In this document: positions 4,314 through 45,411 of the stretch, in pieces
Position numbering within the stretch: position 1 is the first letter of the stretch
Layout: each line of letters starts with the position of its first letter
Origin: Octopus vulgaris
Taxonomy: Eukaryota
Assembly: GCA_951406725.2 (NCBI GenBank)
Contig: OX597824.1
Location: 10,168,001 to 10,232,000 of the forward strand
DNA length: 64,000 nucleotides
Reading direction: 5' to 3'
Position numbers and translations under genes: made by a program
The notes under the pieces: generated by a model
What the model saw: the letters and a program-made list of their open reading frames with translations, nothing else
Databases searched by the model: none
What the model was told of the DNA's origin: nothing

Positions 4314-4552
4314 ATATGTAATGATTTGAGTTTTTATTGATGCGTTTTATTGTTAGCAAGCTTGGAGAAGAACATTAGTGGCTATGATTGTGGTGACAGT
4401 GGTGGTGGTGGTTGTAGTGAAATAGAGGGAACACTGCTTGAGAGTGATCTAGAGATCATTGAATCATACTGAATGGTGATTTACCAATGCAACAAATAAG
4501 CTACGGCTTGGGTGCTTATCAAGAATGTGGCTGTGTGGAAGAGAAATCAGCT

Positions 4553-4827
4553 TTACAAATCCAAATTCTGATAACTGTTGTCAAAAATAGATTTTTCATC
4601 ATGGTCTTTGGCATTGATCTTAGCCAAGTAATAACTGATGTTTTCGTCTTCAGATTGTTTTGCATCTGAAGTTTTATTATTAGTATTTATCTTAGCCATG
4701 TAATGACTGATGCCATCATCTTCAGGTGGTTCTTCAGCAGAAGTATTAGGTTTAATACGGTTTTCCTGGTCAGGTGTCTTATTCACTGAATCATAATCGC
4801 AATTTTGTTTTTTTCTAGAAACACGAC
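4553..4827 (-). CDS. Terminal coding exon of orphan type I membrane protein (cytoplasmic tail)
   Basis: Pyrimidine-rich CAG acceptor (4828-4830). Phase-1 start completes T+GT=Cys with the upstream exon. Reads RVSRKKQNCDYDSVNKTPDQEN...ISHYMAKIN...ISYYLAKIN...NSYQNLDL*. AATAAA on the minus strand at 4333-4338 and 4346-4351. Confidence 0.85.
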
Positions 4828-6772
4828 CTGGAATAATAAGGAAGTTTTGTTAAGTCAGGCATGAAACTTTGGTAAGAAGTTCGGTTATGCATCTGATTTT
4901 TTCCTCCATCTCAACAAAGATGAGGGCTTTTCATGAAAATTTATATATTTACAAATTATTGGAGCATGTGCTTTTCACAATTGGATTTCATTCGATTTTC
5001 AATCTTACCATTCAACTATGAAGTTCATTGGAATTTGTTCTCAACCAGGAGCACAATACATTCGGTGTTATAAGATCAATTATACAAACATAGTAGAGGC
5101 GCAATGGCCCAGTGGTTAGGGCAGCGGACTCGCGGTCGGAGGATCGCGGTTTCAATTCCCAGACCGGGCATTGTGAGTGTTTATTGAACGAAAACACCTA
5201 AAGCTCCACGAGGCTCCGGCAGGGGATGGTGGTGAACCCTGCTGTACTCTTTCACCACAACTTTCTCTCGCTCTTTCTTCCTGTTTCTCTTGTACCTGTA
5301 TTTCAAAGGGCCAGCCTTGTCACACTCTGTGTCACGCTGAATCTCCTCGAGAACTACGTTAAGGGTACACGTGTCTGTGGAGTGCTCAGCCACTTGCACG
5401 TTAATATCACGAGCAGGCTGTTCCGTTGATCATATCAGCTGGGACCCTCATCGTCGCAACCGACGGAGTGCTCCTATATATACAAACATGATTATATGTA
5501 GTCATGCATTTTAACATTATGATATTTCTGTCAAGGAGTTGATTATGAATCTGTACTTGTGTATGCAGCTCTGGACATGATTTACTGAGGAACCCTGGCA
5601 GTTTCCCATGCAATAAATTTTTATTCAAAGGAAAAGTTGCCAACTCAGGTTAGTTTCATATACCTATTTCTTTACTACCCACAAGGGGCTAAACACAGAG
5701 AGGACAAACAAGGACAGACAAACGGATTAAGTCGATTATATCGACCCCAGTGCGTAACTGGTACTTATTTAATCGACCCCGAAAGGATGAAAGGCAAAGT
5801 CAACCTCGGCGGAATTTGAACTCAGAACGTAGACAAAATACTTATTTCTTTGCTACCCACAAGGGGCTAAACACAGAGAGGACAGACAAATGGATTAAGT
5901 CGATTATATCGACCCCAGTGCGTAACTGGTACTTATTTAATCGACCCCGAAAGGATGAAAGGCAAAGTCAACCTTGGCGGAATTTGAACTCACAACGTAA
6001 TGACAGATGAAATACGGCTACGCATTTCGCCCGGCGTGCTAACGTTTCTGCCAGCTCGCCGCCTTAAATTTGTGATATACCTTCACAGCTATGCTATTGC
6101 AGGTGTTGTTGTCAAAATCTAAAGAGCCAGAACAGATCCTACACAGGGTCTTGCCTGACCTCCTAACATTTCCACCAATCTATCACCCTGGATTCATAGA
6201 AAAATATTTCATACAAAAAAATTTTAGAATAAAATTTCATGTTTAGTTTCATGTTAAAACATTTAATTTCTCCAGAATTCTTCAGAAACCTTATGAAGCA
6301 AAAACCACTATGGTTGTGTGGTTTTGTAACTGTATGGTTTTGGGTTCAAATCCATTGTGCAGCACCTGCTATGGCTCCAGGCTGAACTATGCCCTGTGAA
6401 TGAATTTGGAAGATGGAAACTGTGGAAGCTAATTGTGTGTTTGTGTTAGTACTCCACTACTGCTTGATAACCAGTGTTGGTTTGTTTACATCCCTATAAT
6501 TTACCAGTCCAGCTAAAGGGACTAATAGAACAAATACCAAACTTAAAAAATAACTAGTGGGATCGGGGTGGTGACTCTTGTTGTACTCTTTCACCACAAC
6601 TTTCTCTCACTCTCTCTTCCTGCAATGGACTGGCGTCCCATCCAGCTGGGGTGAACACATACGCCACAGAAACTGGGAAACTGGGCCCATGAGCCTGGCT
6701 AGGCTTGAAAAGGGCAACGTTTTTATCAGGATTTTGTAGCAAACTGTATCAATAAAATGGATTTTTACTTAC

Positions 6773-6916
6773 ATTTTAAGACAACCAGTAAAACAAACAT
6801 CAGGATAATCAGAAGGACTCCTCCTACAATAATCAGCCAATCATAAGAAGCCTTCTTGTTTTTTAGGAAATTCACAGTATTTGTTGATGGTAAATACACA
6901 GTATTTGCTGGCTGTG
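6773..6916 (-). CDS. Transmembrane exon (144 bp, phase 1-1)
   Basis: Acceptor ttcatcttgtcttccaatattttAG, donor GTAAGT. Encodes QPANTVYLPSTNTVNFLKNKKASYD-WLIIVGGVLLIILMFVLLVVL-K, a 21-residue hydrophobic helix followed by basic residues in the next exon. Confidence 0.88.
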
Positions 6917-6970
6917 CTAAAATATTGGAAGACAAGATGAAAAATAAAGCAGGAAAATACATGAATAATA

Positions 6971-7533
6971 TTGGGTTGTCCGGAAAGTTCATGCTGATTT
7001 ACAGCTTAACTTTCGATTTATTTTAGAACATGTTTGAGTCCATAAAATAGGATTTGACCCCACCTCCATTTAGAGCACAGTTTAAGCTATCTTTTCATGG
7101 AAGAAGGTTTATGTTCCTATAACCTGTGTTAATTCTGTAACCCTTTAAAATGGAAGGTAATAAAGTTCATTTTTGGCACTTGATGCTTTGGGAACAAGAC
7201 AAAAATTGCTGCAGCTCGGCTGGGATGTGTTACCCCACCCTCCATATTCACTAGATATTGCTCCTTCAGATTTCCACTTATTCAGGTCTCTGCAGAATAG
7301 TCTTAATGGTAAAAATTTCAATTCCTTGGATGACGTAAAAAGATACCTTGATGAATTCTTTGCCATGAAACCACCTCAGTTCTGGGAAGAGGGTATTTTC
7401 AGTTAAAGGAAAGATGGAGACGCATTGTACCACAAAATGGTTCATATTTGGTTGATTAAAAATGTAAATGGAAAGTATTTATTGACCTTTTTCTTGCCTT
7501 TAAGAACCAGTATGAACTTTCTGGACAACCGAA
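6971..7533 (+). mobile_element. Internally deleted mariner element
   Basis: TIRs ttgggttgtccggaaagttcat / atgaactttctggacaaccgaa flanked by TA. Internal LPHPPYSLDIAPSDFHLFRSLQN (YSPDLAPSD motif). Confidence 0.9.
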
Positions 7534-7603
7534 TACAAAATAAGATATTTACAATAAATTCCCTCAGATGTCAAAGCAATTAATTAAAGTAACTGCTACA
7601 TAC

Positions 7604-7672
7604 CAACTATATAATCTTCATTAATTTCTGTCGTAGTAGATGTTATTACTGGCTTCTTTCTGTTATTATCAG
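7604..7672 (-). CDS. Stalk exon, copy B (69 bp, phase 1-1)
   Basis: ttttgCAG acceptor, GTATGT donor. Encodes (A)DNNRKKPVITSTTTEINEDYIV. Confidence 0.8.
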
Positions 7673-7919
7673 CTGCAAAATAAACGTAAAATAATAATGA
7701 TAATCCTTTCTACAATACGCACAAGGCCTGAAATTTTTGGGAAGGGGGTTAGTCGATTACATTGACCTTAGTGCATAACTGGTACTTATTTCACTGACCC
7801 CAAAAAATGAAAGACAAAGCCGATCTCAACAGAATTTGAACTCAGAACATAAGGATGGATTAAATGCTGTGAAGTATTTTGCCTGTTATGCTAAAAATTT
7901 TGCCAGCTCACTACCTTAA

Positions 7920-8805
7920 CAACGATGATGATGATAATGATGACAACGATGCCAACAATTATGATGACAATGACGATGATGATGAAGACAACAGTGACGA
8001 TGACAACGATGATGATGACGACGACGATGCCAACAATTACGATGACAATGACGATGATGACAACGACAATGATGACGACGATGACGATGATGATGATGAT
8101 GATGCCAACAATTACGACAACAATGATGACAACGACGACGATGATGACAACGATGACGATGACAATGATGACGTCAACAATGTGGTTCATATTTGGTTGA
8201 TTAAAAGTGTAAAGGCAAGTATTTATTGACCTTTTTCTTGCCTTTAAGAACCAGTATGAACTTTCTGGACAACCGAATACAAAATAAGATATTTACAATA
8301 AATTCCCTCAGATGTCAAAGCAATTAATTAAAGTAACTGTTACATACCAACTATATAATTTTCATTAATTTCTGTCGTAGTAGATGTTATTACTGGCTTC
8401 TTTCTGTTATTATCAGCTGCAAAATAAACGTAAAATAATAATGATAATCCTTTCTACAATACGCACAAGGCCTGAAATTATGACGACAATGACGATGATG
8501 ATGACAATGACGACGATGATGATGATAACGACGATGCCAACAATTACGATGACAATGACGATGATGACGACAATGATGACAACGATGACGACGATGATGA
8601 TGATGCCAACAATTACGACAACAATGATGACGACGACGACGACGATGAAAATGACAATGACGACGACGATGCCAACAATTATGATGATGACAACGACGAC
8701 GATGATGACGATGACAATGACGATGATGATGCCAACAATTACAACAATGATGACGTTGATGACGATGACGACGATGACGATGACAGCAACAACAACAACA
8801 GCAGC
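7920..8805. repeat. (GAY/AAY)n microsatellite with a higher-order GATGCCAACAATTA unit, split by the duplicated exon block
   Basis: Arrays at 7920-8180 and 8480-8805. Confidence 0.9.
8348..8416 (-). CDS. Stalk exon, duplicated copy A (69 bp, phase 1-1)
   Basis: Same splice sites as 7604-7672. One exonic substitution (GAT>AAT, D>N). Confidence 0.65.
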
Positions 8806-9305
8806 AGCCCTGATGCAGTACCAGGCTGTGGCTCTCATGGCTTTCAATCTTAACTGATTGGAAGTGCTATCATGTACATTGTTTTGTCTTTGTATAAAAA
8901 AAGGGCTTCAGTAACTCAATACCACAGATTTGTTTGTCAGATGTTTGACCTTAACCAGTTGAGCATGTCCCTTAGTGGCTGACGATATGTGCATCTCTGA
9001 TCATGAGCAGAAGTAGTTGGGGAGCATCATAGCCATGTGTTGAGAGGGATTCTTTGGAGTTTGAATAATTCACCTCTGGAAATATGGGTGTTTCATTCAT
9101 CATCCTTAAACAAACTTTATTTAGGGACCCTTTGAGCAGGATGGACTACTCAACCTGAAGAAAATTCTAACTGGGCCTCTTCTACAAGGTCATGCACAGT
9201 TTATCTTGATATAAGATCACCATGTCATGCATATATGGTTGTGATGCATGTGCCTGGTGTACCCTTATCAGACAGGTAGTCATGACTGGTATATTGGGCT
9301 TCATA
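8805..9305. repeat. Interspersed repeat, inverted relative of 29915-30450
   Basis: Extended reverse-complement similarity, e.g. ccttatcagacaggtagtcatga vs tcatgactacctgtctgataagg. Confidence 0.7.
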
Positions 9306-9532
9306 TATATATATATACTATATTTACTTATGTATAAGTTGATAAGTTGCACCCCTAACTTAGTGTTAAATCTTGGTACAAATTTTTTTTCCCTTCATAG
9401 TCTTAGCTTTGCTCCTTGCATAAGTTGCACCCCAGTTTTTACAATTATAATCAAGTATGAAATGATGCAACTTAAGCTCAAATAAATATGGTATGTGCAT
9501 TTATGTATTTATATATATCTGAAATATTTTAC

Positions 9533-9611
9533 CTAGAAAACACTGCTTGCCCGAATAACACATGTAAAATTTTGAAGTGAAATCTTTCTCACAGGTAAAA
9601 GAAAATATGGT
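9533..9611 (-). CDS. Ectodomain exon (79 bp, phase 0-1)
   Basis: Acceptor cttttttctttttCAG, donor AG|GTAAAA. Encodes TIFSFTCEKDFTSKFYMCYSGKQCFL, phase-compatible on both sides. Confidence 0.8.
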
Positions 9612-10263
9612 CTGAAAAAGAAAAAAGGGAATGAATGTGTTAAGAACAATCATATGTCATTGAATGATAAGCGATAATCTGAAAGAAAGAGTAATAAGTA
9701 ATCTTTACAACCAACTTAACATGGGCGTCTTGTTAGATCACTGAATATTGAATTATAAGCTTTGGGAGATCTTCTCAAATAGGTGCTTGGTGCATAAAAG
9801 CACATACTGATCATCATCATCATCATCATCGTTTAACATCCGCTTTCCATGCTAGCATGGGCTGGACGATTTTGACTGAGGGCTAGCAAACCAGATGGCT
9901 GCACCAGGCTCGAATCTTGATCTGGCAGAGTTTCTACAGCTGGATGCCCTTCCTAACGCCAACCACTCCGAGAGTGTAGTGGGTGCTTTTTATGTGCCAC
10001 CTGCATGGAGACAGTCAGGCAGTACTGGCAACGACCTCACTCGAATCTTTTTACACATGCCACCGGCACAGGTGCCAGTAAGACGACGCTGATAACAATC
10101 ATAGCAAATGAAATTCGTCTGTTATTGGCACCAGAACTTCAATGTCACATGATTTCAGTTAATTGCACATCCTCAGTGGGAAACACCAGTCATCTCATAG
10201 CAGTCAGATCTCACTGCTATGATATATAGAATTTCAACATCTGAAAAGATGCTGATGTCACAA

Positions 10264-11668
10264 ATATGTTTCGAAGGCTGCATATTCCTAATTGTGAAGG
10301 AATAAGGAGTACATTATGCCGCTTTCTCATCAGGAAAAACAAGGAATTTATGTCAACATCAAGATTCACAAAAACTTTTAGATGACTGCTCTCACTGAGC
10401 GCATAGCGATAACGAGTGTCTCTTTAATATTCCTTTATAAGGAGTGACATCAAACTGATTGAATGTAGAAAATTCTAGAAGGTTCTAAGGGTTCAAGAGT
10501 TCAAACGAAGTAGGGGGAGAGAGGCCTAAGAAAAGTAAGGTGATTTGGAACAGATACCGACACAATGGATTAAGCAAACTAATTTGGCGTCTGAAAGACA
10601 GCAATTCAACCTTCAAGCTGGAATGGTCCACTTTGTCGGTATCCGTTCCGTTTGATAAGAGCAGAAAAATTTGTGGCGTCTGTAATTCTGAATTTTTTCA
10701 TATATTATTCGCCAAAGTACCTTTAATAAATTCAATCGTCGAGAGGTCCTACAGGTGCTTGCACTGGAGAAAACACACCTTTCACTCAGATGAATAATGA
10801 CTAATATAGATAACCCCCTTGAATTTTAATTAATATATTTCCATTTATATATTTCACCCCTTTATTTAAAAAAAATTTTTTTATGCTTTCAAAGACATAC
10901 TACCCAATCCATTGAGGTTTGTTTTGCCTTTGTCCCAATGCCTCGCCCTCCTCTTTCTTTTTCTCTCTCTTTCCCTCTATCTATAGTAATCAAGCACACA
11001 GACACATATCTGCTACACCACTATCTGTTTTTTTGACATCTACCCATCCACATACACATTCACGCACACACATACACACACATAGGTATTAATACAGTTA
11101 TATTCATTCACTCACACAGACACTCATTCACAAAAGAATTTAACAAAACCCACCATACATATGACCTGTTCCAAATCACCTTACTTTTCTTAGGCCTCTC
11201 TCCCCCTACTTCGTTTGAACTCTTGAACTCTTAGAACCTTCTAGAATTTTCTACATTCAATCAGTTTGATGTCACTCCTTATAAAGGAATATTAAAGAGA
11301 CACTCATTATTGCTATGCACTCAGTGAGAGCAGTCATCTAAATGTTTTTGTGAATCTTAACGTTGACATAAATTCCTTGTTTTTCCTGATGAGAAAGCGG
11401 CATAATGTACTCCTTATTCCTTCACAATTAGGAATATGCAGCCTTCGAAACATATGTCGAAAATAAAGGAAATTTGTTAATTTGTCGTTCAACTCCAATC
11501 TTACATTTATTCATAAATTTTATAAAAATACACACAAATTTCCACACGAAAACACGTAGTCTCTGCCCTAGGCACGTAACTTCAACTGTGTTATTTCTGA
11601 TGTGAATTTGCTACCCAGGTATCGGTTAAACGAATTATCCATAAAAAGATATTTCATTTTTCTACTCA

Positions 11669-11672
<4 letters not shown>
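10264..11672 (+). mobile_element. 5'-truncated Penelope-like retroelement: inverted pLTR + ORF 3' end + pLTR with hammerhead + tail ending at (TA)n
   Basis: 290-bp near-identical inverted repeat (10264-10553 vs 11166-11455). The intervening ORF LSKLIWRLKD...LEWS...CGVCNSE...LIN...RCLHWRKH* resembles the C-terminus of PLE GIY-YIG regions. Ends in (TA)n at 11673. Confidence 0.8.
11381..11463 (+). ncRNA. Minimal type-I hammerhead ribozyme in Penelope-like pLTR
   Basis: ttttc-CTGATGA-gaaagcggcata...tatgcagccttc-GAAA; palindrome ACATATGT; GUC (cleavage after 11458); gaaaa completes helix I. Confidence 0.85.
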
Positions 11673-11710
<38 letters not shown>

Positions 11711-12298
11711 TCATACATACATACATACACATATATATAAAACTGACATTAAAATGCAGTGACTACTATTTGACATACCTTAAAAACATTTATAACAGAC
11801 AAAAAAAAACAAAAAAAGATAGAACATGCTGATTTCTTATCTTCTTGGTGGTGGTGGTCACTTGAAGATATTTTCTTCCATGTTGCTGTTACATTTGCAA
11901 TGCATGTTATTATGTGTTGACATTTGGATTTGAAACACCATCACAGCCATCATGAGCAACAACAACAACAGCAGCAACAGCAACAACAACAACAAAAACA
12001 GCTCACAAATGGTAACATTTAAAATGTTGGTTGTTAATTCATTATATTGTTCATTTGAAAGCAAATTACAAACATTAAAGAAAAATCTAGAACAAACACA
12101 TACATGCACACACACACACACACACACACATACACACACACACTCACATATTTATAGATAATGGGCTTCCATACAGTTCCCATTTACGAAATTCACAAAT
12201 AAGGCATTTGCTAACCTGGAACTAAAATAGATGACACTCATCCAGGTAACTCATTGTGAGATTGAACCTGAAACCACTTAACTATATAGCTAAACCTG

Positions 12299-12350
<52 letters not shown>

Positions 12351-13244
12351 TGTGGGCACATGGCCTAGTGGCTAGGTTGTTGCGCTCATACTCACAAGAT
12401 CATCATCATCATCATCATCCGTTTTCCATGCTAGCATGGGTTGGACGGTTCGACTGGGGTCTGGGAAGCCAGGAGGCTGCACAAGGCTCCAGTCTGATCT
12501 GGCAATGTTTCTACAGCTGGATGCCCTTCCTAACGCCAACTACTCCATGAATGTAGTGGGTGCTTTTTACGTGCCACCGGCACAGAAGCCAGTCAAGGTG
12601 GTGCTGGCATCGGCCACGTTCGGATGGTGCTTTTTATGTGCCACCAGCACAGGATCACAACTACAATTTCCATTGATTTTTGGTGTTGATGTACTTGACT
12701 CAATAGGTCTCCTCAAGCACAGGGTCGAAACGGTGTTTCTTTATTTGTCACCTGCACAGGAGTCAGTCCAGCGGCACTGGCAACGGCCAGGTTCGATATT
12801 CCCAGATTGCCAATGTATCGTCTATTTTAGCAAAACACTTCATTTCCCATTGTCCCATTCTGTTAAGCTATTGAATAGATAATCCTACAATGGACTGGCA
12901 TTTTGTTCAGGGTGAATGTTGCCTTGCCCACCTAGCCAATGGAATGACATTATTCAAAAGCTACACCAATGAGAGGAAGTGCATAGTGAGTAGCGGTGTG
13001 TAACAGCATCTGATAGTCTGGTCGATACAAAGACATGACTGAGCTGGTATAGTCATGTTGCGAGAATGGATGAGGATAGCTGTGTGAAAAAGTGCCACAC
13101 CCTAGCAGCTGAGGTAACCTGTGGAAGAGGTAGACCCAAGAAGATTTGATAGGTAGTATTTTTGGCTGTAACGGACAGACATGAGATTAGCATTGTTGTT
13201 GGTGATTGCCTTTGTGGACATAGCTTTACACACACACACACACA

Positions 13245-13278
<34 letters not shown>

Positions 13279-13417
13279 TAACTACCATATGCAGAACCAC
13301 CACCACCACCACCACAAACTGCTTTTGCAGCTACAGAAAAATATGTATATGTAAAAAAAAAAAAAAAAGAATTCACAAAAATATTGATAAAATAAGGAAT
13401 TCTACAAGAAAACATAC

Positions 13418-13518
13418 CTCAGAATTATTCTGGAGAAATTCATCTTGAGTCAAGTTATAAAAGAAATATTCTTCCCAGGTGTTGTTCACAAGGATTATTA
13501 AGAAGCCTTTGACTTTCT
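13418..13518 (-). CDS. Ectodomain exon (101 bp, phase 1-0)
   Basis: Long pyrimidine tract + CAG acceptor, GAG|GTATGT donor. Encodes (E)KVKGFLIILVNNTWEEYFFYNLTQDEFLQNNSE with three N-x-S/T sequons. Confidence 0.82.
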
Positions 13519-13633
13519 CTGTGGACAAAGAAGAGAAAAACAGAAAAAAAAGAGTAGGTGAGTGATGGTTTAAAGTTATGTAGTCTATTTCATCATCATC
13601 AACATCATCGTCATCATCATCATCATCATCACT

Positions 13634-13664
<31 letters not shown>

Positions 13665-13892
13665 ACAACATCATCGTCATCGTCGTCATCATCGTCATCA
13701 TCATCGTCGTCGTCGTCATCATCATCCTCATCCTCATCATCATCATCATCATCATCATAGTTTTAAAGTCTACTTTAAAACTATGACAAGATTCCGCGTT
13801 CGATTGCAGGCAGTAACCTGAATAATAATAATAATAATAATAATATCGAAGAATACCTTAGGAATGAGAACCCAGGTTCAAAATTTCCCCAG

Positions 13893-13938
13893 GACACCTG
13901 AAGAAGGCTGGAGAGTATATCAGCCGAAACGTTGTGTT
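13893..13938 (+). ncRNA. Minimal type-I hammerhead ribozyme
   Basis: gacac-CTGAAGA-a-ggctg/cagcc-GAAA; palindrome ACGT; GUU; gtgtt closes helix I. Confidence 0.8.
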
Positions 13939-14374
13939 AGCAACAAACAAGATGAGGGCAAATATCCATCAAATGTAGATAATTAAAATTTTTTTAAAAT
14001 TTTACTAACCCTGTGATGGTGCTTTCCATTTAAGTTGGCTCCAAATCTTGTTGCCATCCAACTTCTCCGAGAACTGACCATCTTGAAAGGAACTGTATTG
14101 ACCAGCAAGTGCATGGAAGTTTTCTGAAAAAGGGAGAAAATTCATTTTTAGGTTCTAAATATCACCTCTCTTTGAGGAAGATAGCATGTATTCTTTACCT
14201 TTCAAATATGGGAGTTAAATATTTTCTCCAAATTGATCAGGAAATTTAAACCAGCTAAATTTGACCAGTTCCATATAAAGCTGGGTATGTTTACATATGA
14301 TCCCTTAAAAAAATAATTTGATCAGAACTAAATTAAAATTTTGTTAGATAAACCTCATAATAATAATAATAATG

Positions 14375-14850
14375 AAATTTTTATATACAGTGCTCAGGTG
14401 CACCACAACTTGTCAAAAGTGCGTATAAAGCATATGCAGTAATGTACAAATGTCTGGGAGTGAACAGTGTATGAGTTAGATACATGCTTGCGTGTGTATG
14501 GAGGGGAGAAAATCAGGTGTAGTGTTGGCGAATCTCAGGAAGCATGGAAGTTTTGAAGGATGCAGTGCTCAGACAACTAACAACTGATGCTGGCAGTTTG
14601 TTCCATGCTTCAGCAACTCTCAGCGTGAAAAAAATGCTTCCTAAAGTCATGGGAGCTGTGCTGTTGTCTGACTTTGCAAACATGTCCACGGGTGTTAGAC
14701 AGGTGGAGTTTGAAAAGGTGCTCAGAGTTATTGTTTGTAAGATGGTTAATAATTTTATGGATGTCTGCCAAGTCAGCTGCCAGACATCGGAGTTTCAATG
14801 TATCCATGCCCAGGGAAGTAAGGCGTTCAGAATATGGCAAATGCCTGATG
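14375..14850 (-). mobile_element. CR1-like LINE 3' end
   Basis: MPYSERLTSLGMDTLKLR...DLADIHKII...NTRGHVCKV...RKHFF, followed by a 3' UTR and (TTA)n tail. Confidence 0.8.
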
Positions 14851-15171
14851 GAGGGTATTCTCTTGGTTACACGTGATGTTGAAGGTGATTATGATGACGA
14901 TGGTGGTGATGTTGGTGTTGGCTATGATGATAATGATGGTGATATGACATTAATAGTGGCAATAGTGAAGTGATGATGATGATGTTGTTGTTGGTGGTAG
15001 TGGTGGTGGGTAACAATGATGGTGATAATGAGAATGAGTCAACACGATAATGTTGAAGATGATGTGATTGGCTGAAATGGCGATGAGGATGAAGATGATG
15101 GTAGTGGCAGCAGTGGCACTGGTGGTGATGGTACTAGGAGTGGTAGTGGTGGTGTAGTTGTTGTTATTATT

Positions 15172-15219
<48 letters not shown>

Positions 15220-15289
15220 GGTTATGGTGGTGGTCGTGGTGGTGGTTGTGGTGTTGTCTTTGTTGTTGCTGTTGTTGTTATTATTATTG

Positions 15290-15321
<32 letters not shown>

Positions 15322-16232
15322 GGTGGTTGTTGTGGTGGTGGTGGTGTCGTTGTTGTTGTTGTTGGTGGTGGTAGTGGTCGTGGTGGCAGAGGAGAATTTA
15401 ACACAGAGAAGATTAAGGCCTACAATCTTTGCAAATTCTCATGAACCAGATGGAAAAACACGTCTCTGATGGTAGTGATGATGACGATGATGACAATGAC
15501 AATAACAATAAGAAAGATGGTGATGAATATCAATACGATGAGGATAATGGTGGGGGTGACAGTGGTGGAGGTGGTGGTTGTGGTGGTAATGTAGACACAC
15601 ATTATATATATATATATCTTTGGGTGTATATATTTGTGTCTGTATCCCCATCCCATACTTGACAACATGAAAGCACGTGGCTTAGTGGTTAGGGTATTCG
15701 GCTCATGACCATAGGGTCATGAGTTCAATTCCTGGTGGTGTGTTGTGTCCTTGAGCAAGACACTTTATTTCATGTTGCTCCAGTCCACTCAGGTGCCAAA
15801 AATGAGTAGTACCTGTATTTCAAAGGGCCAGACTTGTTACATTTTGTGTCATGCTGAATCTCCCTGAGAACTATGTGAAGGGGTACACGTGTCTGTGGAG
15901 TGCTCAGCCACTTGCAAGTTAATGTCACGAGCAAAACTATTCCATTTATTGGATCAACTGGAACCCTTGTCATCATAAGAGACAGAGTCTGCCAGTACTT
16001 GACAACCAGTGTTGCTATGTTTATATTCCTGTAACTTAGTGGTTCTCCAAAAAGAGACTAATAGAATAAGTACAGGTTTTTAAAAAAAATAAAAAAGTAC
16101 TGGAGTCAATTCATTTGACTAAAATTCTTCAAAGCAGTGCTCCAGCATGGCCACAGAGTAAATGACCACAACAAGTAAAAGATAAAAGATCTCTCCTGCA
16201 AGATATTCGAGAGTAAAAGAATTAAATCTTAC

Positions 16233-16263
16233 CTAATTTACCAAAGGTACAGTTGTAATCATC
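16233..16263 (-). CDS. Ectodomain micro-exon (31 bp, phase 0-1)
   Basis: Acceptor tttttttttatattcCAG, donor AG|GTAAGA. Encodes DDYNCTFGKL, and G+AG gives Glu with the next exon. Confidence 0.75.
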
Positions 16264-17742: not shown

Positions 17743-18005
17743 GTTGCTTATATACAGTATTTACTTATATGCATAAAATATAATAATACGCGTATGAATT
17801 TGTGTGCTCTGCTTGAGCAGAACAAGTCCACACACGAGGACAGAAAGTGTTGCTGAAGAGGTCACAGATGTGTGATGAAAGACTTCTGGACAATGAACAT
17901 GAATTACAATAAGAACAGTAATAAACGAGTGAAGAACAAATATATAGTGCGTGTGTTTATTTGGCAAAAGAAAATGACCATCCTGAAATACAGCAATATA
18001 ATAAT

Positions 18006-18397
18006 ACTAGCAGTATCCCCTGGCGTTGCTCGGGTTTGTTTTGACCCTTTAGAATTGGAATTTTTGAAAAGTAAAAATTTTGTATTATGTAGCTTGTTAT
18101 TCTCTTTAAGTGAACATTTTTCTGGTTGAAATACACCGAAAAATGGCGACACAGCAGTAAAAAAATCGTAAAATTAAGGATTTTCATAGAAAAAAAGCAC
18201 CTTTTTGATGTAAATAATTTTTGGTGTTAACATGGTCTGATTTGAATTTTTTCTTCTATGGAAGGAAGAGCAAGCCTTCTTCTATCATACTCTCAATTTT
18301 GGTCAACTTGCGCCGCAGGGTCTCAGAGGAGATAGCGTTAATTGAAGGCTACCAAACCTGCCATACACAGACAACTTCAGCTTTATATATAGAGAGA
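18006..18397 (-). mobile_element. Non-autonomous Helitron (~390 bp), copy 1
   Basis: Minus strand starts TCTCTATATATAAAGCTG and ends with a CCCGAGCAACGCCAGGG hairpin + CTAGT. Confidence 0.75.
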
Positions 18398-19604
18398 TAT
18401 CATCATCATCATCATCATCATTGTTTAATGTCCACTTCCCCCATGCTTGCATGAATCAGATGAAACTTGTTGAGGGATCTTTTCTACAGCCATATGATCT
18501 TCCTGTTTATCAGCCATCACCTGTTTCCAAGCAAAGTGATATTCTCTAATAACTAGACATGTTTTACACGAAGGACTGGAAATTAACAACACCACTTGTA
18601 TGTTGGTGATGCTCATTTACAATAATCACATGATGTCAAGATAAAGATACACACAAACAAACACACACACACACACAAGTGTGCTTATAAATAGGCTTAC
18701 ATATAAGGTGGCATTAGGAAGGGCATCCAACCATAGAACCATGCCAAAACAGATGACTAGATTCTGGGCAGGTCTCCAGCAGGCCAGCTCCTGCCTAATG
18801 ATGATGATGAGGAGGAGGAGGAGGGGAGGAGGAGGAAGAGGAGGAGGAGAAGGATACTCTTGCTTCTATCTTCCCTCTCATTCTGGTCTTTCTGATGTTG
18901 TTCTGTCTTTGTCCCTCTGTCTGTAAGTCTGTCTGTCCAAGTTCTCTCTCTCCCTCCTCTCCTACTCTTCTCCCCTCTCTTTGTTATCCCCCTCCTAGGT
19001 CACCTAACCAAAATCTTCACAGCCTAAGTTAATGACCATCCTATACTCTCCCTCAACTACTCATTCTTGGTTTTTCTTCAGCCATTACTCCCTCTCATAC
19101 TTAGCCTACACACCTTAGAGATCTTAGATACTCTTACCATGCATGGTACAGCAACTTTTTGTGCTGATGCTGCAATGGAATCAACAGCTCTCCGTCCACA
19201 GGGGAATGGTGAGGGATACTAACCATCCCCTAGTGCTATGCTCATGAAAATGTACCAGTGCAAAGAATAAAGTCATGGGGCAAACAAGGGAGAAAGTGTG
19301 GGATTTTCTGTGTATGTATATAGATACCTCCAAACAAACATGATTTTTATTGAACTCCTAATACTTATTGTTTAATATTTTCTCAGATATTTCCTTGTAA
19401 ACTGTTTTTAACATTTTCTTATTATTATCAAAGAATGTATATATATATTTTAATACTTTTGTGACAACCAGTACTTGACACAACAAAGCTTATACAAAGC
19501 TTTACATTTTACTTTTGACAATCTTTTTCTAAAAAAAGCGAAAACGGTCAAGTGAATAAACATCTTTAAAATTGGATTTTCAAACCTTCTTTCATATATA
19601 TATA

Positions 19605-24795: not shown

Positions 24796-27176
24796 TACTT
24801 ACTACTTGTACTTGCAATGGCATTCACCCAGGGTAGGTTGAGCCATCTCCAATGCATATTTAGTGTTTCACAAAGAATATGAGTTCGTGAGTTCACATGT
24901 GGTCGCTGGTCACATACATATACATTTTGGGATAATGTGATCAATAACAGCTCATCTTGCTCTCGACTACTGACCACTGTAGAGGTCACTGCCAATTATC
25001 AGAGCAGACGTAGCCTAGGTTTGAAGCAGATTCTAGAGACATGTTTTACCAAAAGCTAAATGGTACCTCAAACCCAATACTCTTCCAGTACACCAGACAC
25101 CAACTGGAAATTTCTGAAAGCCTGTGCTATTGCTAGATAGCTGTTGAACCTACACCCTGTTCATCTCTCCATTTGACAGGTTTTGCTTTTAGTTCTGCTC
25201 GGTTTCTAGCAACTGCTCCTCACCAGGCAAGCCTAGTGCAGGTACCAGTTTTGTTGCTGATGAACTGACCATGCAACAGGTTGTATTTGATTCCAGGATG
25301 CCAGGAGCACTCATGAGAGACCTCACAAGTGACTTGTATTATCAGCTTGGCTGCATTATCAGCTTAGCTATATTATCAGTATATATACATTATCAGTTTA
25401 GTTACATTATCAGAACAAGCTATGAGGACTAGCTTATGTATTATCAGTTTAGTTATATCAATATTAGCTATGTGTGGAGGTGCAATGGCCCAGTGTTTAG
25501 GGCAGTGGACTCGCGGTCATAGGATCACGGTTTCGATTCCCAGACCGGGCGTTGTGAGTGTTTATTGAGCGAAAACACCTAGAAGCTCCACGAGGCTCCG
25601 GCAGGGGATGGTGGTGATCCCTGCTGTACTCTTTCACCACAACTTTCTCTCACTCTTACTTCCTGTTTCTGTTGTACCTGTATTTCAAAGGGCCGGCCTT
25701 GTCACTCTCTGTGTCACGCTGAATATCTCCGAGAACTACGTTAAGGGTACACGTGTCTGTGGAGTGCTCAGCCACTTACACGTTAATTCCACGAGCAGGC
25801 TGTTCCGTTGATTCGGATCAACCAGAACCCTCGTCATCGTAACCGATGGAGTGCTTCCATCCATTAGCTATGTTATCAGTATTAGCTATTTCATCAATTT
25901 AGCGATGTTATCAGCTTAATTTTGTTATGAGTATTAGCTAAGTTCTATATTTATCTATGCTATCAGTTTAACTATGGGAATATTTTAATTACATTATCAG
26001 TATATCAATGCAAATGTTTTAGCTATGTTATCATTTTATCACATGAGATTATTTTATCTGATCAGATTATTTCATTATACAAGTGGTTTTTTAAATGCAA
26101 GAAAATTTTTATTGAGGTATTATTTTAAGGCATGACATTATTTTAATTCTGGAAAACAGATATTAAATGATGACAGCAATGACAATGATGATGACAATGA
26201 CAATGATGATTATGATGATTTATTCTCAACCATAAAAGGTAGAAGTACTTAATTACGTGAGTAATCCACATTCAAATTCTGTTGTGTCTGGGGAGAGTCA
26301 TTTTCTTTTTGTGCCTTATAATGTAACACACTCACTGGTAAAATTTCCACTTATTTCTTTTTTTTATTTTCCTAAAATTTTCGTTGCGTCTTGCAACCTT
26401 TTCAATAGTCTTGGAAAATTTAGGAAAATAAAAATAAGAAATAAGTGGAAATTTTACCGGTGAGTGTGTTACATTATAAGGCACAAAAAGAAAATGACTC
26501 TCTCCAGACACAACAGAATATGCTTCAACACACCAACTCATATAAAGAATCTTGCAAACCAAATCCAAAAACGAAACCACATTCAAATATAATTCCAAAA
26601 CCAAAGAAAACATAAACATAAGCAAAGAAAGAAAAAAAGAAGAAAAAGAGGAAGAAAGAAGAAAAATCATCTGTTCAACATTAAGTGCATCAATCAGTCC
26701 CACCCCTAAGGTTCAACAGAACCTACTGAAGCAGCCAACATGCTCATGGCATTACCACAGGTGATGATGAGATTAAGGCATTGGAACGATCAAGCACCCT
26801 CATAGGTATCACCTGACACCTCAGTAAGGTGAGCCACAAATGGTGACAAGAGCTTTGCTATTGGTGGCCCAGCCCCTTCAGACATCACAAACGCCATGGG
26901 CTAAAAAAAAAATGGATCACTCACAAGTCCCAATACTTAAGGGCTAGGAAAGAAGTGACCCTCCCATTTACTGCAGCATCCAGGATGTGACAAGGAGCAA
27001 AGGAGTCACTGCCTGTGACATCCCAGATGAAATGCCAACCTCTTTACAAGGGACAAGGGTTTTAACACTAACACTAGAGATTATTTTTATCAGGTGAGAT
27101 TGCATTAGCTCCAGAATACTTTCTCCTATTGCATTTCATTTTGTTGCTTTCTGTATATTTATATATGTATATTTTA

Positions 27177-27550
27177 TACAAGCAGTATCGCCGGCGTTGC
27201 TCGGTTTGTTTTGACCCTTTAGAATTGGAATTTTTGAAAAGTAAAAATTTTGTATTATGTAGCTTGTTATTCTCTTTAAGTGAACATTTTTCTGGTTGAA
27301 ATACACCGTAAAATGGCGACACAGCAGTCAAAAAATCGTAAAAAATAGGGATTTTCTTAGAAAAAAAGCACCTTTTTGATGTAAATAATTTTTGGTGTTA
27401 ACATGGTCGGATTTGAATTTTTTCTTCTATGGAAGGAAGAGCAAGCCTTCTTCTATCATACTTGCGCCGCAGGGTCTCGGAGGAAATGGTGTTAGTTGAA
27501 GGTTACCAAACCTGCCATACACAGACAACTTCAGCTTTATATAGAGAGAG
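27177..27550 (-). mobile_element. Non-autonomous Helitron, copy 2
   Basis: Near-identical to 18006-18397 with a small internal deletion. Confidence 0.75.
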
Positions 27551-27879
27551 ATTATATATTTCTGGCACAAATGCTTTTCTTTTTGTGTTTCTCTGATTTT
27601 CTTTTTCATTTATGTAACAATAGTTCACCACATACACAACATGTTGCACAAAGTTTTGTTCAACATATTTTCATCCATTTGGTATTAACCTGTCCAAGGC
27701 TGTACAAATTAGGTTTTTTTCTAAAGATCTAAACTTAAAACTTCCATCTTAGGTGCCAAACACCAATTTAATAACGACACAGTTATTTTACTAAATTCTT
27801 CACAATTTTAAAACTTAATTGAAATAAAGTTTCTGTATTTCAAAAGAAGGATAGCAACAAAAATGTTAACAAGAATATT

Positions 27880-28735
27880 CTCATAAAGCATGGCCTTGAT
27901 GCTGCAGGCTTCTCCTCCCAGCCCAAGCCAGCGGGGTTAGACTGAGGGGATAGTAAATGGCCTGATGGTATGACAATATTCCTGTTCCATGAAGGTGGTG
28001 AGCTGGCAGAAACCTTAGCACGCCGGGCGAAATGGTTAGCAGTATTTCGTCTGTTTTTATGTTCTGAGTTCAAATTCCGCCGAGGTCGACTTTGCCTTTC
28101 ATCCTTTCGGGGTCGATTAAATAAGTACCAGTTACGCACTGGGGTCGATATAATCGACTTAATCGTTTGTCTGTCCTTGTCTGTCCCCTCTGTGTTTAGC
28201 CCCTTGTGTGTAGTAAAAAAATAGGTATTTCATCTGTCTTTATGTTCTGAGTTCAAATTCTGCCGAGGTTAACTTTGTCTTTCATTCTCTCGGGGTCGAT
28301 AGATTAAGTAGCAGCTGCGTACTGGGGGCGATGTAATTAAATGGCCCCCTCCCCCAAAATTTCAGGCCTTGTACCTAGAGTTGAAAAGAATATTCCTGCT
28401 CCATGGTGGTAGGCCCCTCATCTGGGATTCCACATGCTGTGATACATTCTCCAGTGGAAAGTTTGTGAGTTCAACTCCCATCCCAGGCTATACACCTCAT
28501 CAGGCTGAGAAAAGTAAACTGTCAAAGTATCAACCACTCTCTGATAGGTTTATAGTCAATCCTGTAGCAGTGGAGACCTCTGGCATTCTTGGCCCTTGGA
28601 CCATATCCCTGCCTACTGCTCTTGGGATGGAGATGGCTGTCTGCAAGTGCAAGCTCCATGAGTCAGAGTGGCTGTTCCAGTGCATCTCCCTTGCAATCTT
28701 CCAGGGCAACACTTTTTCCATTTTGTTTGCTGGGA
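27880..28735 (+). mobile_element. RLE-type (CRE-like) non-LTR fragment interrupted by a SINE
   Basis: GLD*GDSKWPDGMTIF | GRPLIWDSTCCDTF...AEKSKLSKY...PVAVETSG...LFQCISLAIFQGN. The SINE at 27992-28388 is bounded by a 17-bp TSD aatattcctg(t/c)tccatg. Confidence 0.75.
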
Positions 28736-29069
28736 TCATGAGATGGGCTGAATTACAGGAAATCAAGAGAATGTAAGAATTTTGTAGCTTACTACAATCC
28801 CTCTTCAACATGTTTCATTCTCGTTAAGGTAGTGAGCTTGTAGAATTGTCAGCATGCAGGCCAAAATGCTTAGCAGCATTTCCTTCATGTTTATGTTCTC
28901 TGAGTTCAAATTCTGCTGAGGTCAACTTTGCTTTCTATTCTTTCAAGGTTGATAAAATAAGTACCAGCTGAGCATTGGAGTTGATGCTTAGCAACTTAGC
29001 CCTTTCCTTGATGCTGCTGGTCTTGTGCCAAAGTCTAAAACCAATATATTATAGTCTAGCACATTCTTT

Positions 29070-39935: not shown

Positions 39936-40780
39936 TTAGATTGGCAACTAAGTTCTTGCTGTTTTTTTAAATTTTGGAATTCATTGCGTTTTTAAATTTT
40001 GGAATCTATTTTTTTCGAGAATTCTATTTTTGAATCCTTTTGGAATCTATTTTTTTTTTTTTTTGTAGTTAATTTTAGTTAATTTTTGTTTATTTTCAGA
40101 TCATTAAAATGGAATGTCAAGTTAAGAAAAATGTGCATTTTATACACCTTCTTTTTGATTTTAATCAAGGTTCTAAGGCTGCAAAAGCTGCTCGTGACAT
40201 TTGTGCTATGTATAGAGAGGGTGCCATAGCTTAAAGAACCACTTGTGATTGGTATGCCAAGTTAAAAAATGGAAATTTTGACTTCAAAGATGTACCTCGT
40301 TCTAGCCATCCAGTTGAATTTGATGAAGAGCAATTAAACCAGCTTTTGCACGAGAATTCTCGTCAAGAAACAAGGGAACTGGCAAAGAAAATGGAATGAT
40401 CCCACACTGCTATAGAGAAGCATCTTCACTTGGTGGGAAAGGTTCAGAAGTATGGAGCATGGGTTCCGCATGCTTTAAGTGACAACATCAAAACTCAACA
40501 AGCCACAATCTCCGCTGGTTTGTTTGCTCGTCACCACTCAATTCATGGACACAAGCAACAATTTCTTTACCGAATCGTTACTGGCGACGAAAAGTAGTGC
40601 CTGTACATCAATATGAAACAGCGTAAGGAATGGCTTAGCCCCGGTAAACAAGCGACACCGAGCGTGAAACAAGATCTTCATCTGCGTGAAACGATGTTGT
40701 GCATATGGTGGGACTGGGAAGGGATTATCCTTTAAGAATTGCTTGAACGGAACCAAACGGTCGACACAGAACTCTATATT
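39936..40780 (+). pseudogene. Mariner transposase pseudogene, 3'-truncated
   Basis: TA + TIR-like ttagattggcaactaagttc. ATG near 40089; WVPHAL (40460), RIVTGDEK (40572), MLCIWWDWEGII. Several stops. Confidence 0.88.
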
Positions 40781-41408: not shown

Positions 41409-43491
41409 TTTAATTTATTATAAGTGTGAAAAAAAATTTTTTTAATATACATATAAATATAAAAATATAAAATATAAAAACGTGTGCATAGACACCCATA
41501 ATACTATACATATATATATATACTCATTAATACAATAATACAAAGTAAACAAAACAAAATAAAACAAAATATATATCAATATATATTAATAAGCACAGTT
41601 ATTCTACATATTGGGCTAATAGTTCTAAAAACTAACACATAGGAAAATATATGCACACTCACATTACGGTAATATTTTTACCTTTGCCCACATAATACAG
41701 TAGATGAACTAATTGCTTGGCAATTTTTAACATTTATGTATTAGTCTTGTTGAGTACCTCTCTAGCAGTATATTGGATATATGTTATCCCATGGTGGGTT
41801 GAATTTTCAACCCTTATCTCATTTTATAATATATATATATATATGTATACGTATGAATGTATATGCATATATAAATATGCATATATAGATGTAATTATAT
41901 ATATGAGTATACACACACACACACACACATGGCTGGTGTTAGGAAGGGCATCCAGGGGTAGAAACCATGCCAAAGCAGATAGCTGAGTTTGGTGCTGTCT
42001 TTTGACTTGTCAATTCTTATCAAATCATTCTACTCATGCCTGCATAGGAAACAGACGTCATATGATGATGATGTTAATGATGATGATATATTAATAGTTA
42101 TCGCCAAGCTAATATGGCAGTCCAGAAATAAAGGATGAATACTACCTTTGATCAGCTCCAAGAGGCCATTGCCTCTAGCTAGCTATATGACACACGAACC
42201 TGTGTCCATTATAACCTTCGAACAGGGGAGGTCAGTCGCTTCCCCTTGCTGGTCAGGCATCTGCAGACTAGTTTCAGGGTATTTGCCCCTTATCAATGCA
42301 CAGCAGCCGAACGACCAGCAAGGGGAAGCGGCTGACCACCCCTGTTCGAAGATTATAATGGACACAGGTTCATGTGTCACATAGCTAGCTAGAGGCAATG
42401 GCCTCTTGGAGCCAATCAATGGCAGCATTCATCCTATATTTCTGGACTGCCATGTTAGCTTGACAATAACTATTAATTTCCAGTACTGCTGCCATAGTCT
42501 CCTTTAGAGAGACTTAGAAATATTATTATTTCAATATATATATCTTTTATTTTTTATCTTTTAGTTGAACAAATTGACCCCAGGACTTTTTTAAAACCTA
42601 GTACTTATTCTGTTGATCTTTTTTGCCAAACCACTAAGTTATGGGAACATAAACACATCAACACTTGTTGTCAAGTGATGGTGGGGAACAAACACAGACA
42701 TGAAGACACACACAAATTGATATATACATATGTAGGTATACAGCAGGCTTCCTTCAGTTTCCATCTACCAAATCTACTCTCAAGGTTTTGGTTGCTGTGA
42801 GGATATAGTGGCAGACACTTGCCCAAGGTGCCACAAATGGGACTAAATCTGAAACGTATGGTTGGGAAACAAATTTCTTAACCAAACAGCCATGCTAATA
42901 TTTTATATTTAAACATTTTCATTTCGTTTCAATGTGCACATACAAACATACGTACACACACACACACACACACACACTCACACACTCCTGGATGCATATA
43001 CATACTAACACATACACACACACACACTGACACACACGCACACACTCCTGGACGCATATACATACTGACACATACACACACATACATTCCAAAATATTTG
43101 TTTTTGCCAGCAAACCTGATATTTTTGTATTTGTAATAGCATTGTGGAAAATAAAAAAAATTCTCATCATATATTTGTAATTCATCCTGGCAATGTTCGC
43201 TCATCCATAACCTTTTCGTAATTAATATCACTCTTATTTATCATCATATCTTTAACAGTTGCTTGCAAATTTCTACAATGTCATCAGATGCATCTTCAGT
43301 CTTTCTGAGCTCTATGTTGTAGTAGCACTAATCTTTTGGATGTATAGAACTGCGTTTATATCATAAACGAGGCAAGTGAAATCAAAATCAAATTTGATGA
43401 CTGGCGTCCGCGCTAGTGGGGTGCAAAGAGCACCATATGAGTGTGATCGTTGACAGAGCGGCTAACCGGCTTCCATGCCGGTGGCACTTAA

Positions 43492-45109: not shown

Positions 45110-45369
45110 GTCAGGAGAGTATTGTAGTTCGCTTAAAGCATAGTGTATTGTTTGTAAACGATAATAATAATAGTAAAAATGTGTTTTGAATGGCATAATA
45201 ATGCACTATAATACAAATAATGGACTATAATAAGTGATGTAATTTAATCATCCAAATTTGGTATAAAATTCCTTCTTCAGATATCCCTAGGGATTGCGCG
45301 AGTTACTGCTACAATCAATTTTCCAACATTGGAAAACCGATTATAGCAGTGACTCAATCAATCCCTAGG

Positions 45370-45411
45370 AATATTTGAAGAAGGAATTTTTATATTCCGA
45401 AATATTATACC
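45370..45411 (+). ncRNA. Degenerate hammerhead ribozyme in fold-back element
   Basis: TTGAAGA-a-ggaat/attcc-GAAA-tat-t-atacc. The inverted arm (about 45274-45280) preserves CTGAAGA but lacks the GAAA segment. Confidence 0.55.

Follow-up and report, generated by a model that had tools for sequence, protein, structure and literature searches.

A nine-exon Octopus gene for a predicted single-pass glycoprotein with a probable fibronectin type III-like ectodomain and a tyrosine-bearing tail

The window analysed here, 64,000 nucleotides of Octopus vulgaris contig OX597824.1, carries on its minus strand a nine-exon gene (Table 1) with canonical splice sites at all eight introns. Its predicted product is a type I membrane glycoprotein of 327 amino acids, identical at 325 of 327 aligned residues to isoform X1 (P0001) of O. 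sinensis LOC115217258. By sequence, the locus is an Octopus gene already annotated as LOC115217258 in O. sinensis (isoform names X1 and X3) and LOC106876703 in O. bimaculoides, both labelled "uncharacterized protein". An earlier note had proposed seven of these exons (31, 101, 79, 69, 69, 144, and 275 nt). They exist, with AG acceptors at 7/7 and GT donors at 6/6 internal ends, and join to 768 nt encoding 255 amino acids plus a stop; however, that frame has neither start codon nor signal peptide, and two further coding exons had been overlooked. Exon 1 matches residues 1–34 of P0001 and P0002 exactly, has an in-frame TAA ten codons upstream of its ATG, and encodes a hydrophobic signal peptide at approximately residues 1–23, the cleavage site being placed by eye. 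Exon 3 was missing from the chain drawn within 4553..16263, although it lies inside that interval; it corresponds to residues 45–82 of P0001 with one substitution and is found in P0001, P0002, and P0004. A form skipping exon 3 would stay in frame, and was rejected as the main product because it would lose two predicted strands and because the exon is present in each of the three records that span this part.

Table 1. Features of the gene, in window coordinates
Feature	Coordinates	Strand	Content
Exon 1 (coding)	58790–58689	−	ATG, signal peptide, Cys31; GTAACA donor, phase 0; overlooked earlier
Intron 1	16264–58688	−	42,425 nt; interspersed and simple repeats abundant
Exon 2	16263–16233	−	31 nt; Cys39, NCT sequon
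Exon 3	14123–14010	−	114 nt, phase 1-1; LAGQY motif, first two predicted strands, Trp77
Exon 4	13518–13418	−	101 nt; VKGFLI motif; sequons NNT, NLT, NNS
Exon 5	9611–9533	−	79 nt; last predicted strands, Cys123, Cys134, Cys140
Exon 6	8416–8348	−	69 nt, phase 1-1; first copy of the Thr-rich stalk unit
Exon 7	7672–7604	−	69 nt, phase 1-1; second copy of the stalk unit, matching the first at 68/69 nt
Exon 8	6916–6773	−	144 nt; juxtamembrane part of the stalk, then the 21-aa TM helix (6839–6777), uncharged, at the hydropathy peak
Exon 9	4827–4553	−	275 nt, ending in TAA; the greater part of the 92-aa tail: Cys237, Cys246, Tyr248, 279, 302, 303, 322
Two AATAAA hexamers (4351, 4338)	4333–4351	−	~200 nt past stop; candidate polyadenylation signals

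The annotated O. sinensis proteins map onto the seven exons, an independent support stronger than a random-chain test. There, 3 of 200,000 AG..GT chains drawn from the window at the same sizes stayed open, under a crude null that takes no account of the freedom with which the exons had been chosen. An exon scan of the window, which recovered just four of the nine known exons, returned no additional convincing one. Pfam confirmed none of 11 suspected transposon remnants in one set and one of six at a convincing score in another, and an Rfam search gave 0 matches.

Named relatives found in protein searches belong to O. sinensis and O. bimaculoides only. The tail matches O. sinensis LOC115217258 at 100% and O. 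bimaculoides LOC106876703 at 73 of 91 residues; the latter record is a 112-aa protein comprising TM and tail only (78–80% identity). Residue 67 is Asn in O. sinensis X1 and Asp in the window. The cluster of P0001 has four members. Among 1.84 billion representatives, no accepted relative outside Octopus was found at E ≤ 1e-3. One match, P0003 (E 3.9e-4), was rejected as chance; it is 312 aa long and contains three repeats, each of which matches the last 26–49 tail residues. An ectodomain search limited to proteins of 162–517 aa had six candidates, of which just the two O. sinensis isoforms were recovered, proteins longer than 517 aa being covered through the representative search. The gene is therefore lineage-restricted, as first suggested, and an orphan outside Octopus but not within it, where two species carry identifiers. 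Literature searches by LOC115217258, or by LOC106876703 or its accession, found no mention of the gene; its identifiers were absent from the searched supplements of PMC9712504, PMC9699675, PMC11087794, and PMC9258296, and the literature and supplements searched yielded no data on its expression or binding. A search on cephalopods, cytokine receptors, and fibronectin type III found no papers. The gene is real but unstudied, and its product, as predicted from sequence, is a small cell-surface protein.

Between signal peptide and stalk lie 119 residues, forming an ectodomain of ~120 aa that is also present in both annotated isoforms. The sequons NCT, NNT, NLT, and NNS listed earlier are present, and the mature form has five cysteines (31, 39, 123, 134, and 140) rather than four. 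Structure models suggest, at low confidence, that the ectodomain is probably one FN3-like beta-sandwich behind an N-terminal Cys31–Cys39 pair; the beta-sandwich of the earlier note is thus seen, but only in models of mean pLDDT 49 (single-sequence) and 42 (two-sequence, the worse), the first with seven main strands at pLDDT 54–59. The top VIA rows were FN3 domains (Z 8.4, rmsd 2.0–2.3, 77–80 residues aligned), a Z near the level that may mean merely a common arrangement, and the best came from fibronectin, tenascin, LAR, and integrin beta4; with the second model, Z was at most 7.0. Brr2 helicase chains scored on par with the FN3 rows (Z 8.6), and ranks were tied among generic FN3 and cytokine-receptor domains, leaving FN3 classes unseparated. 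The suggested Foldseek check gave no match at E ≤ 0.001 in the PDB or among viral models. Cytokine-receptor FN3 families filled 8 of the best 10 of 30 Atlas rows, with scores of 0.80–0.83, which shuffled proteins attain in one case out of three, and are taken as a lead only; the IL-17-receptor family was absent among the Atlas matches listed (best 10 and best 4, each of 30). Pfam placed no family above cut-off for P0001, P0002, P0004, P0005, or the ectodomain, and gave no fn3 match, its weak rows being TM-driven. PDB sequence searches by phmmer and by profile yielded two hits each (E 0.14–1), both over the TM segment, and matched no solved ectodomain.

The Thr-rich stalk is built from a duplicated symmetric exon. 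Its two 69-nt exons stem from the recent duplication of a single exon within a 304-nt unit (7432–7735 versus 8177–8479, 97.7% identical), and the copy number varies: two in the window, three in O. sinensis X1, and one in X3. Copy number would set the height of the domain above the membrane, the extracellular part amounting overall to ~190 residues. The stalk also carries the basic clusters RKK and KNKK. The TM helix (residues 215–235 of the full model) and basic stop-transfer segment described earlier are both present.

Turning to the cytoplasmic tail, the motifs YDSV, HYMAKI, YYLAKI, and YQNL are all found, and Pfam places nothing above cut-off in its 92 residues, in keeping with a single-pass protein without a catalytic domain. 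Among the five tyrosines there is one YxN (Tyr322), with YxxPhi at Tyr248 and Tyr322; O. bimaculoides keeps both patterns, as YQNI and YDPV, and has Cys in place of the HYMAKI tyrosine. Four of five tyrosines are conserved, as expected from the 80% background identity (P = 0.74), and the longest identical run between the two tails, 12 residues, is no better than background (P = 0.80). Each tyrosine has one to three acidic residues among the six upstream. An internal 72-bp repeat (4613–4748, 78% identity) gives rise to the twin HYMAKI/YYLAKI motifs. Cys237 and Cys246, nine residues apart, are retained in O. bimaculoides. A pattern search found no ITAM, ITIM, ITSM, YxxQ, Box1, or NPxY in the tail and no WSXWS in the ectodomain, and Pfam scans found no SEFIR or TIR.

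In non-catalytic tyrosine-phosphorylated receptors, an outside kinase phosphorylates tail tyrosines and SH2 proteins bind. The most likely reading of the gene, with chances about evenly balanced, is in our view a receptor or co-receptor without catalytic activity on which SH2 proteins dock; phosphotyrosine signalling is here what we infer rather than observe, and an immune role is conceivable at somewhat less than even chances. The single domain would bind a protein ligand or partner receptor, and clustering would let a Src/Syk-type or partner kinase phosphorylate the tail tyrosines. The terminal YQN[LI] would dock a Grb2-type SH2 protein, YD[SP]V and the YYLAKIN block would dock other SH2 proteins, and the two juxtamembrane cysteines may be palmitoylated. 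YxN is a Grb2 motif, and Src/Syk kinases phosphorylate enzyme-free tails (PMC3342071); PMC5457136 cites IL-17RB as signalling through tyrosines.

IL-17 receptors are defined by type I topology, a double FN3, and a SEFIR domain (PMC11087794). By that definition, the octopus protein is not one: a signal-peptide exon and a single TM give it type I topology, but the 119 residues before the stalk leave room for one FN3 domain rather than two, and the tail ends at TAA after 92 residues with no SEFIR. The IL-17-receptor resemblance proposed earlier is backed to some degree by short motifs common with mussel first domains, and descent of the ectodomain from such a domain is a tentative possibility that we lean against. 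On this alternative, a reduced first domain was kept, the second FN3 and SEFIR were lost, and the chain still binds IL-17-family cystine-knot ligands as a co-receptor or decoy. It is compatible with the SH2-docking reading, and it is the ligand claim that we judge unlikely. In the first domains of mussel (Mytilus galloprovincialis) IL17R-B, D, E, and F (PMC8353272 supplement, compared by eye), an N-terminal Cys pair that ends in xCT is followed by LxxxY, KxP, and V[KQR]GFx[IL], in that order. The four motifs occur in this order in the octopus domain as well (LAGQY against LSGQY in mussel IL17R-B) and in none of 300,000 shuffles; yet the motifs were picked after the octopus sequence had been seen, the spacings were widened, and two of the four overlap. 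Moreover, shuffling offers no control for FN3 domains of other kinds, which have a similar motif in their B-C strands, and the octopus domain lacks six of the ten mussel motifs, one of the six having matched the regular expression via the first Cys pair only and being discounted. An IL-17 receptor complex chain, 7uwl_E, ties near the top in VIA with the first model (Z 8.0, rmsd 2.5, 83 aligned) and again with the second (Z 6.1, rmsd 3.4, 87 aligned), but the tie covers receptor residues ~200–303, read as the second domain, at 3–4% identity. Profiles fail to detect roughly half of IL-17R ectodomains, and IL-17 binding is described as requiring the double FN3 (PMC11087794). O. bimaculoides has 31–36 IL-17 genes (PMC8353272). 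The four mussel receptors share type I topology and a Thr-rich stalk with the octopus protein, but mussel IL-17Rs have ectodomains of ~350–390 aa and a SEFIR of ~140–150 aa (PMC8353272), against one domain and a 92-aa tail. That a SEFIR-less single-domain chain evolved from an IL-17R and acquired a phosphotyrosine tail, with stalk length tuned by exon duplication and splicing, is more doubtful still. If true, IL-17-family cytokines would signal by a Src/Grb2-type pathway in place of SEFIR-CIKS; no such arrangement features among the architectures noted from PMC11087794.

A second alternative, also improbable, is an adhesion, spacer, or endocytic glycoprotein, whose domain binds a matrix or neighbour-cell protein and whose tail tyrosines are trafficking signals rather than SH2 sites. 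YxxPhi equally serves as a sorting signal; the two YxxPhi sites are the best-formed tail motifs, the C-terminus has a hydrophobic-x-hydrophobic end, and tyrosine conservation is at background. The variable Thr-rich stalk would suit such a protein, as would the closest folds being the four named above, although fold ranks do not discriminate FN3 classes, and the acidic context of all five tyrosines and the terminal YxN in both species argue for SH2 docking instead. Markedly less probable is an FNDC4/FNDC5 (irisin)-like precursor, its FN3 domain freed at the basic stalk clusters as a soluble factor: the "Myokine structure" 4lsd appears in VIA (Z 7.2, rmsd 2.2, 78 aligned), but ranks 41st of the best 50 rows, no solved ectodomain was matched by phmmer or profile, and the long tyrosine tail would be left unexplained. 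A chance exon chain or dead gene is scarcely credible, since, repeat-rich as the window is (38.6% in interspersed self-hits), seven of the nine exons lie outside repeats, the other two pair only with each other, and the gene is annotated in two species, with isoforms X1 and X3 and a frame kept open at 78–89% identity.

Animal genomes commonly encode single-pass proteins that evolve fast and are lineage-restricted; for this reason, and because database identifiers already exist, the gene alone is a modest finding, which would gain weight if the IL-17-receptor link were true. The corrected model defines an ectodomain usable for a direct ligand screen, together with a variable stalk. Catalogues of these receptors usually rely on the SEFIR domain, PMC5457136 among them, and SEFIR-less chains would therefore be missed.

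Several known systems can be set beside the SH2-docking receptor that we favour. Immunoreceptors of the ITAM/ITIM type have a canonical ITAM, ITIM, or ITSM, or a charged TM residue, whereas the octopus protein has no such motif and an uncharged TM. Class I cytokine receptors combine WSXWS, a membrane-proximal Box1 JAK-binding motif, and a paired FN3 cytokine-binding module. Cytokine receptors form the nearest Atlas clusters, with IL-23R and gp130 complexes among the tied VIA rows, but compared with classes I and II the octopus protein is single-domain, without WSXWS, Box1, or YxxQ. FNDC4/FNDC5 have the same layout as the predicted octopus protein, with signal, one FN3, TM, and short tail, although no sequence similarity was detected and the octopus protein adds an N-terminal Cys pair, a long stalk, and a Tyr-rich tail. 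The transmembrane adaptors known as TRAPs (LAT, NTAL, LAX, PAG) have an ectodomain of a few residues (PMC3342071), against ~190 extracellular residues here; the juxtamembrane CxxC of LAT, NTAL, and PAG is absent, there is one YxN, not five, and the Pfam family SIT scores 13.9 bits against P0005, far under its cut-off of 27.6. What the octopus protein and the TRAPs have in common is an enzyme-free tail with several tyrosines, YxN, and juxtamembrane cysteines (PMC3342071).

The minus-strand gene is real and larger than first modelled. All seven exons of the earlier note are present, with AG acceptors at all seven and GT donors at the six internal ones, and joining them reproduces the 255-codon frame and its stop; in a crude control, chains of size-matched AG..GT segments drawn at random stayed open in 3 of 200,000 cases. 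This frame starts at an acceptor, without an ATG or signal peptide, and is therefore not the whole gene. Mapping the O. sinensis LOC115217258 proteins back to the window (isoform X1, P0001; isoform X3, P0002) added two exons, so that the seven stand while the model's completeness does not. The nine exons together make up 984 coding nt, stop codon included, for a protein of 327 aa. All eight introns have canonical splice sites, and of the 327 residues aligned with P0001, 325 are identical, which points to O. sinensis or a closely related species as the probable source of the window. Intron 1 is 42,425 nt long, an in-frame TAA lies ten codons upstream of the ATG, and two AATAAA sequences lie ~200 nt downstream of the stop. 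From the isoform-level annotation we infer transcript support. A simple exon scan, which gave 14 candidates and recovered four of the nine real exons, found no second convincing coding chain in the window, of which this appears to be the sole coding gene. The gene is already annotated in Octopus, yet uncharacterised: neither LOC115217258 nor O. bimaculoides LOC106876703 is named in any full text of the literature searched, nor does any such text combine cephalopods, cytokine receptors and fibronectin type III (FN3); the gene identifiers are likewise missing from those supplement files of PMC9712504, PMC9699675, PMC9258296 and PMC11087794 that were searched.

Features of the gene, its product and the surrounding repeats (window positions in nt, protein positions in residues)
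Feature	Position	Strand	Remarks
Seven noted exons	16263-16233, 13518-13418, 9611-9533, 8416-8348, 7672-7604, 6916-6773, 4827-4553	minus	
Added exon with ATG and hydrophobic leader	58790-58689	minus	mapping of O. sinensis proteins
Added exon	14123-14010	minus	mapping of O. sinensis proteins
Leader	residues 1-23		cleavage site placed by eye
Ectodomain	residues 24-142		five Cys, four sequons
Stalk	residues 143-214		Ser/Thr 15/72
Cytoplasmic tail	92 aa		18 acidic, 14 basic, Cys237, Cys246, five Tyr
Recent 304-nt duplication, stalk-exon bearing	7432-7735 and 8177-8479		
GAT/GAC-type triplet arrays	7919-8181, 8476-8785		
Mariner-type transposase remnant, intron 1, stop-broken	40079-40597	plus	HTH_48 match, E 1.5e-7
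Self-inverted elements, 350-390 nt	42090-42477, 45155-45507, 55807-56153		arm identity 75-84%
Interspersed ~400-nt element, three copies	18004-18398, 27170-27561, 59028-59437		88-94% identity

Interspersed self-matches make up 38.6% of the window (1-64000), which also holds 158 tandem-repeat rows and no Rfam family. An ORF at 7164-7406 (+), which we take to resemble a mariner transposase C-terminus, lies between the second stalk exon and the transmembrane (TM) exon, adjoining the duplicated 304-nt unit; it has no Pfam match. The same is true of four ORF fragments that resemble the ends of non-LTR retroelement proteins (56643-56909, 28312-28776 and 55953-56222, plus; 14513-14888, minus).

The product is a type I protein of the secretory pathway, and its tail contains no enzyme, in keeping with the earlier reading that it has no catalytic domain. 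The claimed 21-aa TM helix recurs, uncharged, at residues 215-235 of the full model; the four ectodomain sequons also hold, whereas the claimed four cysteines become five. Three of these sequons are retained in P0004, an unnamed 116-aa N-terminal record. A 69-nt phase 1-1 exon occurs twice in the stalk, each time as part of a duplicated 304-nt unit whose copies are 97.7% identical; triplet arrays adjoin the respective copies and may have promoted the duplication. O. sinensis X1 has three stalk exon copies and X3 one; duplication, and apparently splicing as well, thus alter the length of the stalk. X3 joins the TM exon ten codons late (6916-6887, minus), an entry at which the window has no AG acceptor, alternative AGs starting only at 6911 and 6907; X1's first stalk copy is also one residue shorter.

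Relatives were few. A search with the 90-aa tail gave two 100% matches among 49 candidates, P0001 (349 aa) and P0002 (295 aa), and an ectodomain search among proteins of 162-517 aa returned the same pair only. Two of 137 candidates in a search of shorter proteins were relatives: P0004, differing at 14 of 116 positions of the N-terminal part, and P0005 (LOC106876703), covering the TM and tail, with 73 of 91 tail positions identical. Across 1.84 billion representatives, phmmer returned P0002 itself and one weak match, the 312-aa P0003, in which the tail's end aligns with each of three repeats; we set it aside as chance. No squid or cuttlefish relative occurred in the protein sets searched. The P0005 tail retains both cysteines and four of five tyrosines, that of HYMAKI being replaced by Cys. 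The overall identity of the tail accounts for this many retained tyrosines (P=0.74), and a longest identical run of 12 residues is likewise unremarkable (P=0.80), so that conservation neither marks the tyrosines as special nor argues against them.

The ectodomain is probably an FN3-like sandwich, judging from predicted models, whose fold ranks do not separate the FN3 subclasses. The AlphaFold2 model of residues 23-148 of P0002, which differ from the window at one residue, has seven main strands with block pLDDT of 54-59; its mean pLDDT is 49, falling to 42 with P0004 added to the input. A VIA-align structure comparison against 48,161 chains was headed by the FN3 domains of fibronectin and tenascin (Z 8.4, rmsd 2.0-2.3, 77-80 aligned). 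Level with these stood LAR, integrin beta4, chains of IL-23 complexes and the IL-17 receptor complex chain 7uwl_E (Z 8.0, rmsd 2.5, 83 aligned, 4% identity, residues 206-303); a second look gave Brr2 helicase chains Z 8.6. For the model with P0004, Z reached at most 7.0, with 7uwl_E in second place (Z 6.1). Cytokine-receptor FN3 families accounted for eight of the ten Atlas matches listed (0.80-0.83, under the 0.9 mark); with these families removed, IL-12 beta and bacterial FN3 led the matches listed (0.75-0.76).

The protein lies outside the IL-17 receptor (IL-17R), class I cytokine receptor and TRAP families. As defined in the consulted part of PMC11087794, IL-17Rs are type I proteins with a double FN3 and a cytoplasmic SEFIR domain, and roughly half of their ectodomains have diverged beyond the reach of profiles. 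The octopus protein lacks two of these three features and is therefore no IL-17R member; the likeness to IL-17R ectodomains that the earlier note raised as speculation gains some support from first-domain motifs. Of ten short motifs abstracted from the first domains of mussel IL17R-B, D, E and F (available part of the PMC8353272 supplement) and picked with the octopus sequence already in view, four occur: a Cys pair ending xCT, LxxxY (LAGQY against LSGQY in IL17R-B), KxP and V[KQR]GFx[IL], the last two matches overlapping. Missing are the third Cys, LY[GQ], PxxLxLxP, [YR]PG[FV]xV, the Cys after the GF strand and the terminal [ST]LPxP; a regex match to the third Cys was discounted, as the first Cys pair produced it. 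None of 300,000 shuffles contained the four in order, though shuffles are no stand-in for other FN3 domains. The B-C strands of other FN3 domains bear a similar motif. Descent from an IL-17R first domain is less likely than not, and retained IL-17 binding is unlikely. An IL-17-binding co-receptor or decoy is equally unlikely, and is compatible with a role as a tyrosine-motif receptor.

That role, as a non-catalytic tyrosine-motif receptor, is the most plausible one, at even odds. Each tail tyrosine is preceded by one to three acidic residues, and HYMAKI and YYLAKI form the two halves of an internal 72-bp repeat (78% identity). In pattern searches, the tail gave one YxN, two YxxPhi and two loose TRAF2-type matches, and the protein no ITAM, ITIM, ITSM, YxxQ, Box1, NPxY or WSXWS. 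The YxxPhi motifs could instead be sorting signals of an adhesion or endocytic protein, an improbable reading; a precursor of a shed ectodomain is less probable still. As a tyrosine-motif receptor, the protein, with its one predicted FN3-like domain on a stalk, would cluster upon ligand or partner binding, whereupon an outside kinase would phosphorylate the tail tyrosines. Speculatively, Cys237/246 might be palmitoylated, the odd ectodomain Cys might form a disulfide dimer, and stalk height might provide tuning. The terminal YQN[LI] would recruit a Grb2-type SH2 protein, by analogy with transmembrane adaptors, whose YxN motifs do so according to the consulted part of PMC3342071. The gene would be of greater interest were its product a SEFIR-less IL-17-binding chain signalling through phosphotyrosine, which we consider quite unlikely. 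Tyrosine-based output has a precedent in the IL-17 receptor family, as phosphotyrosines of IL-17RB recruit STAT5 directly (cited in the consulted part of PMC5457136).
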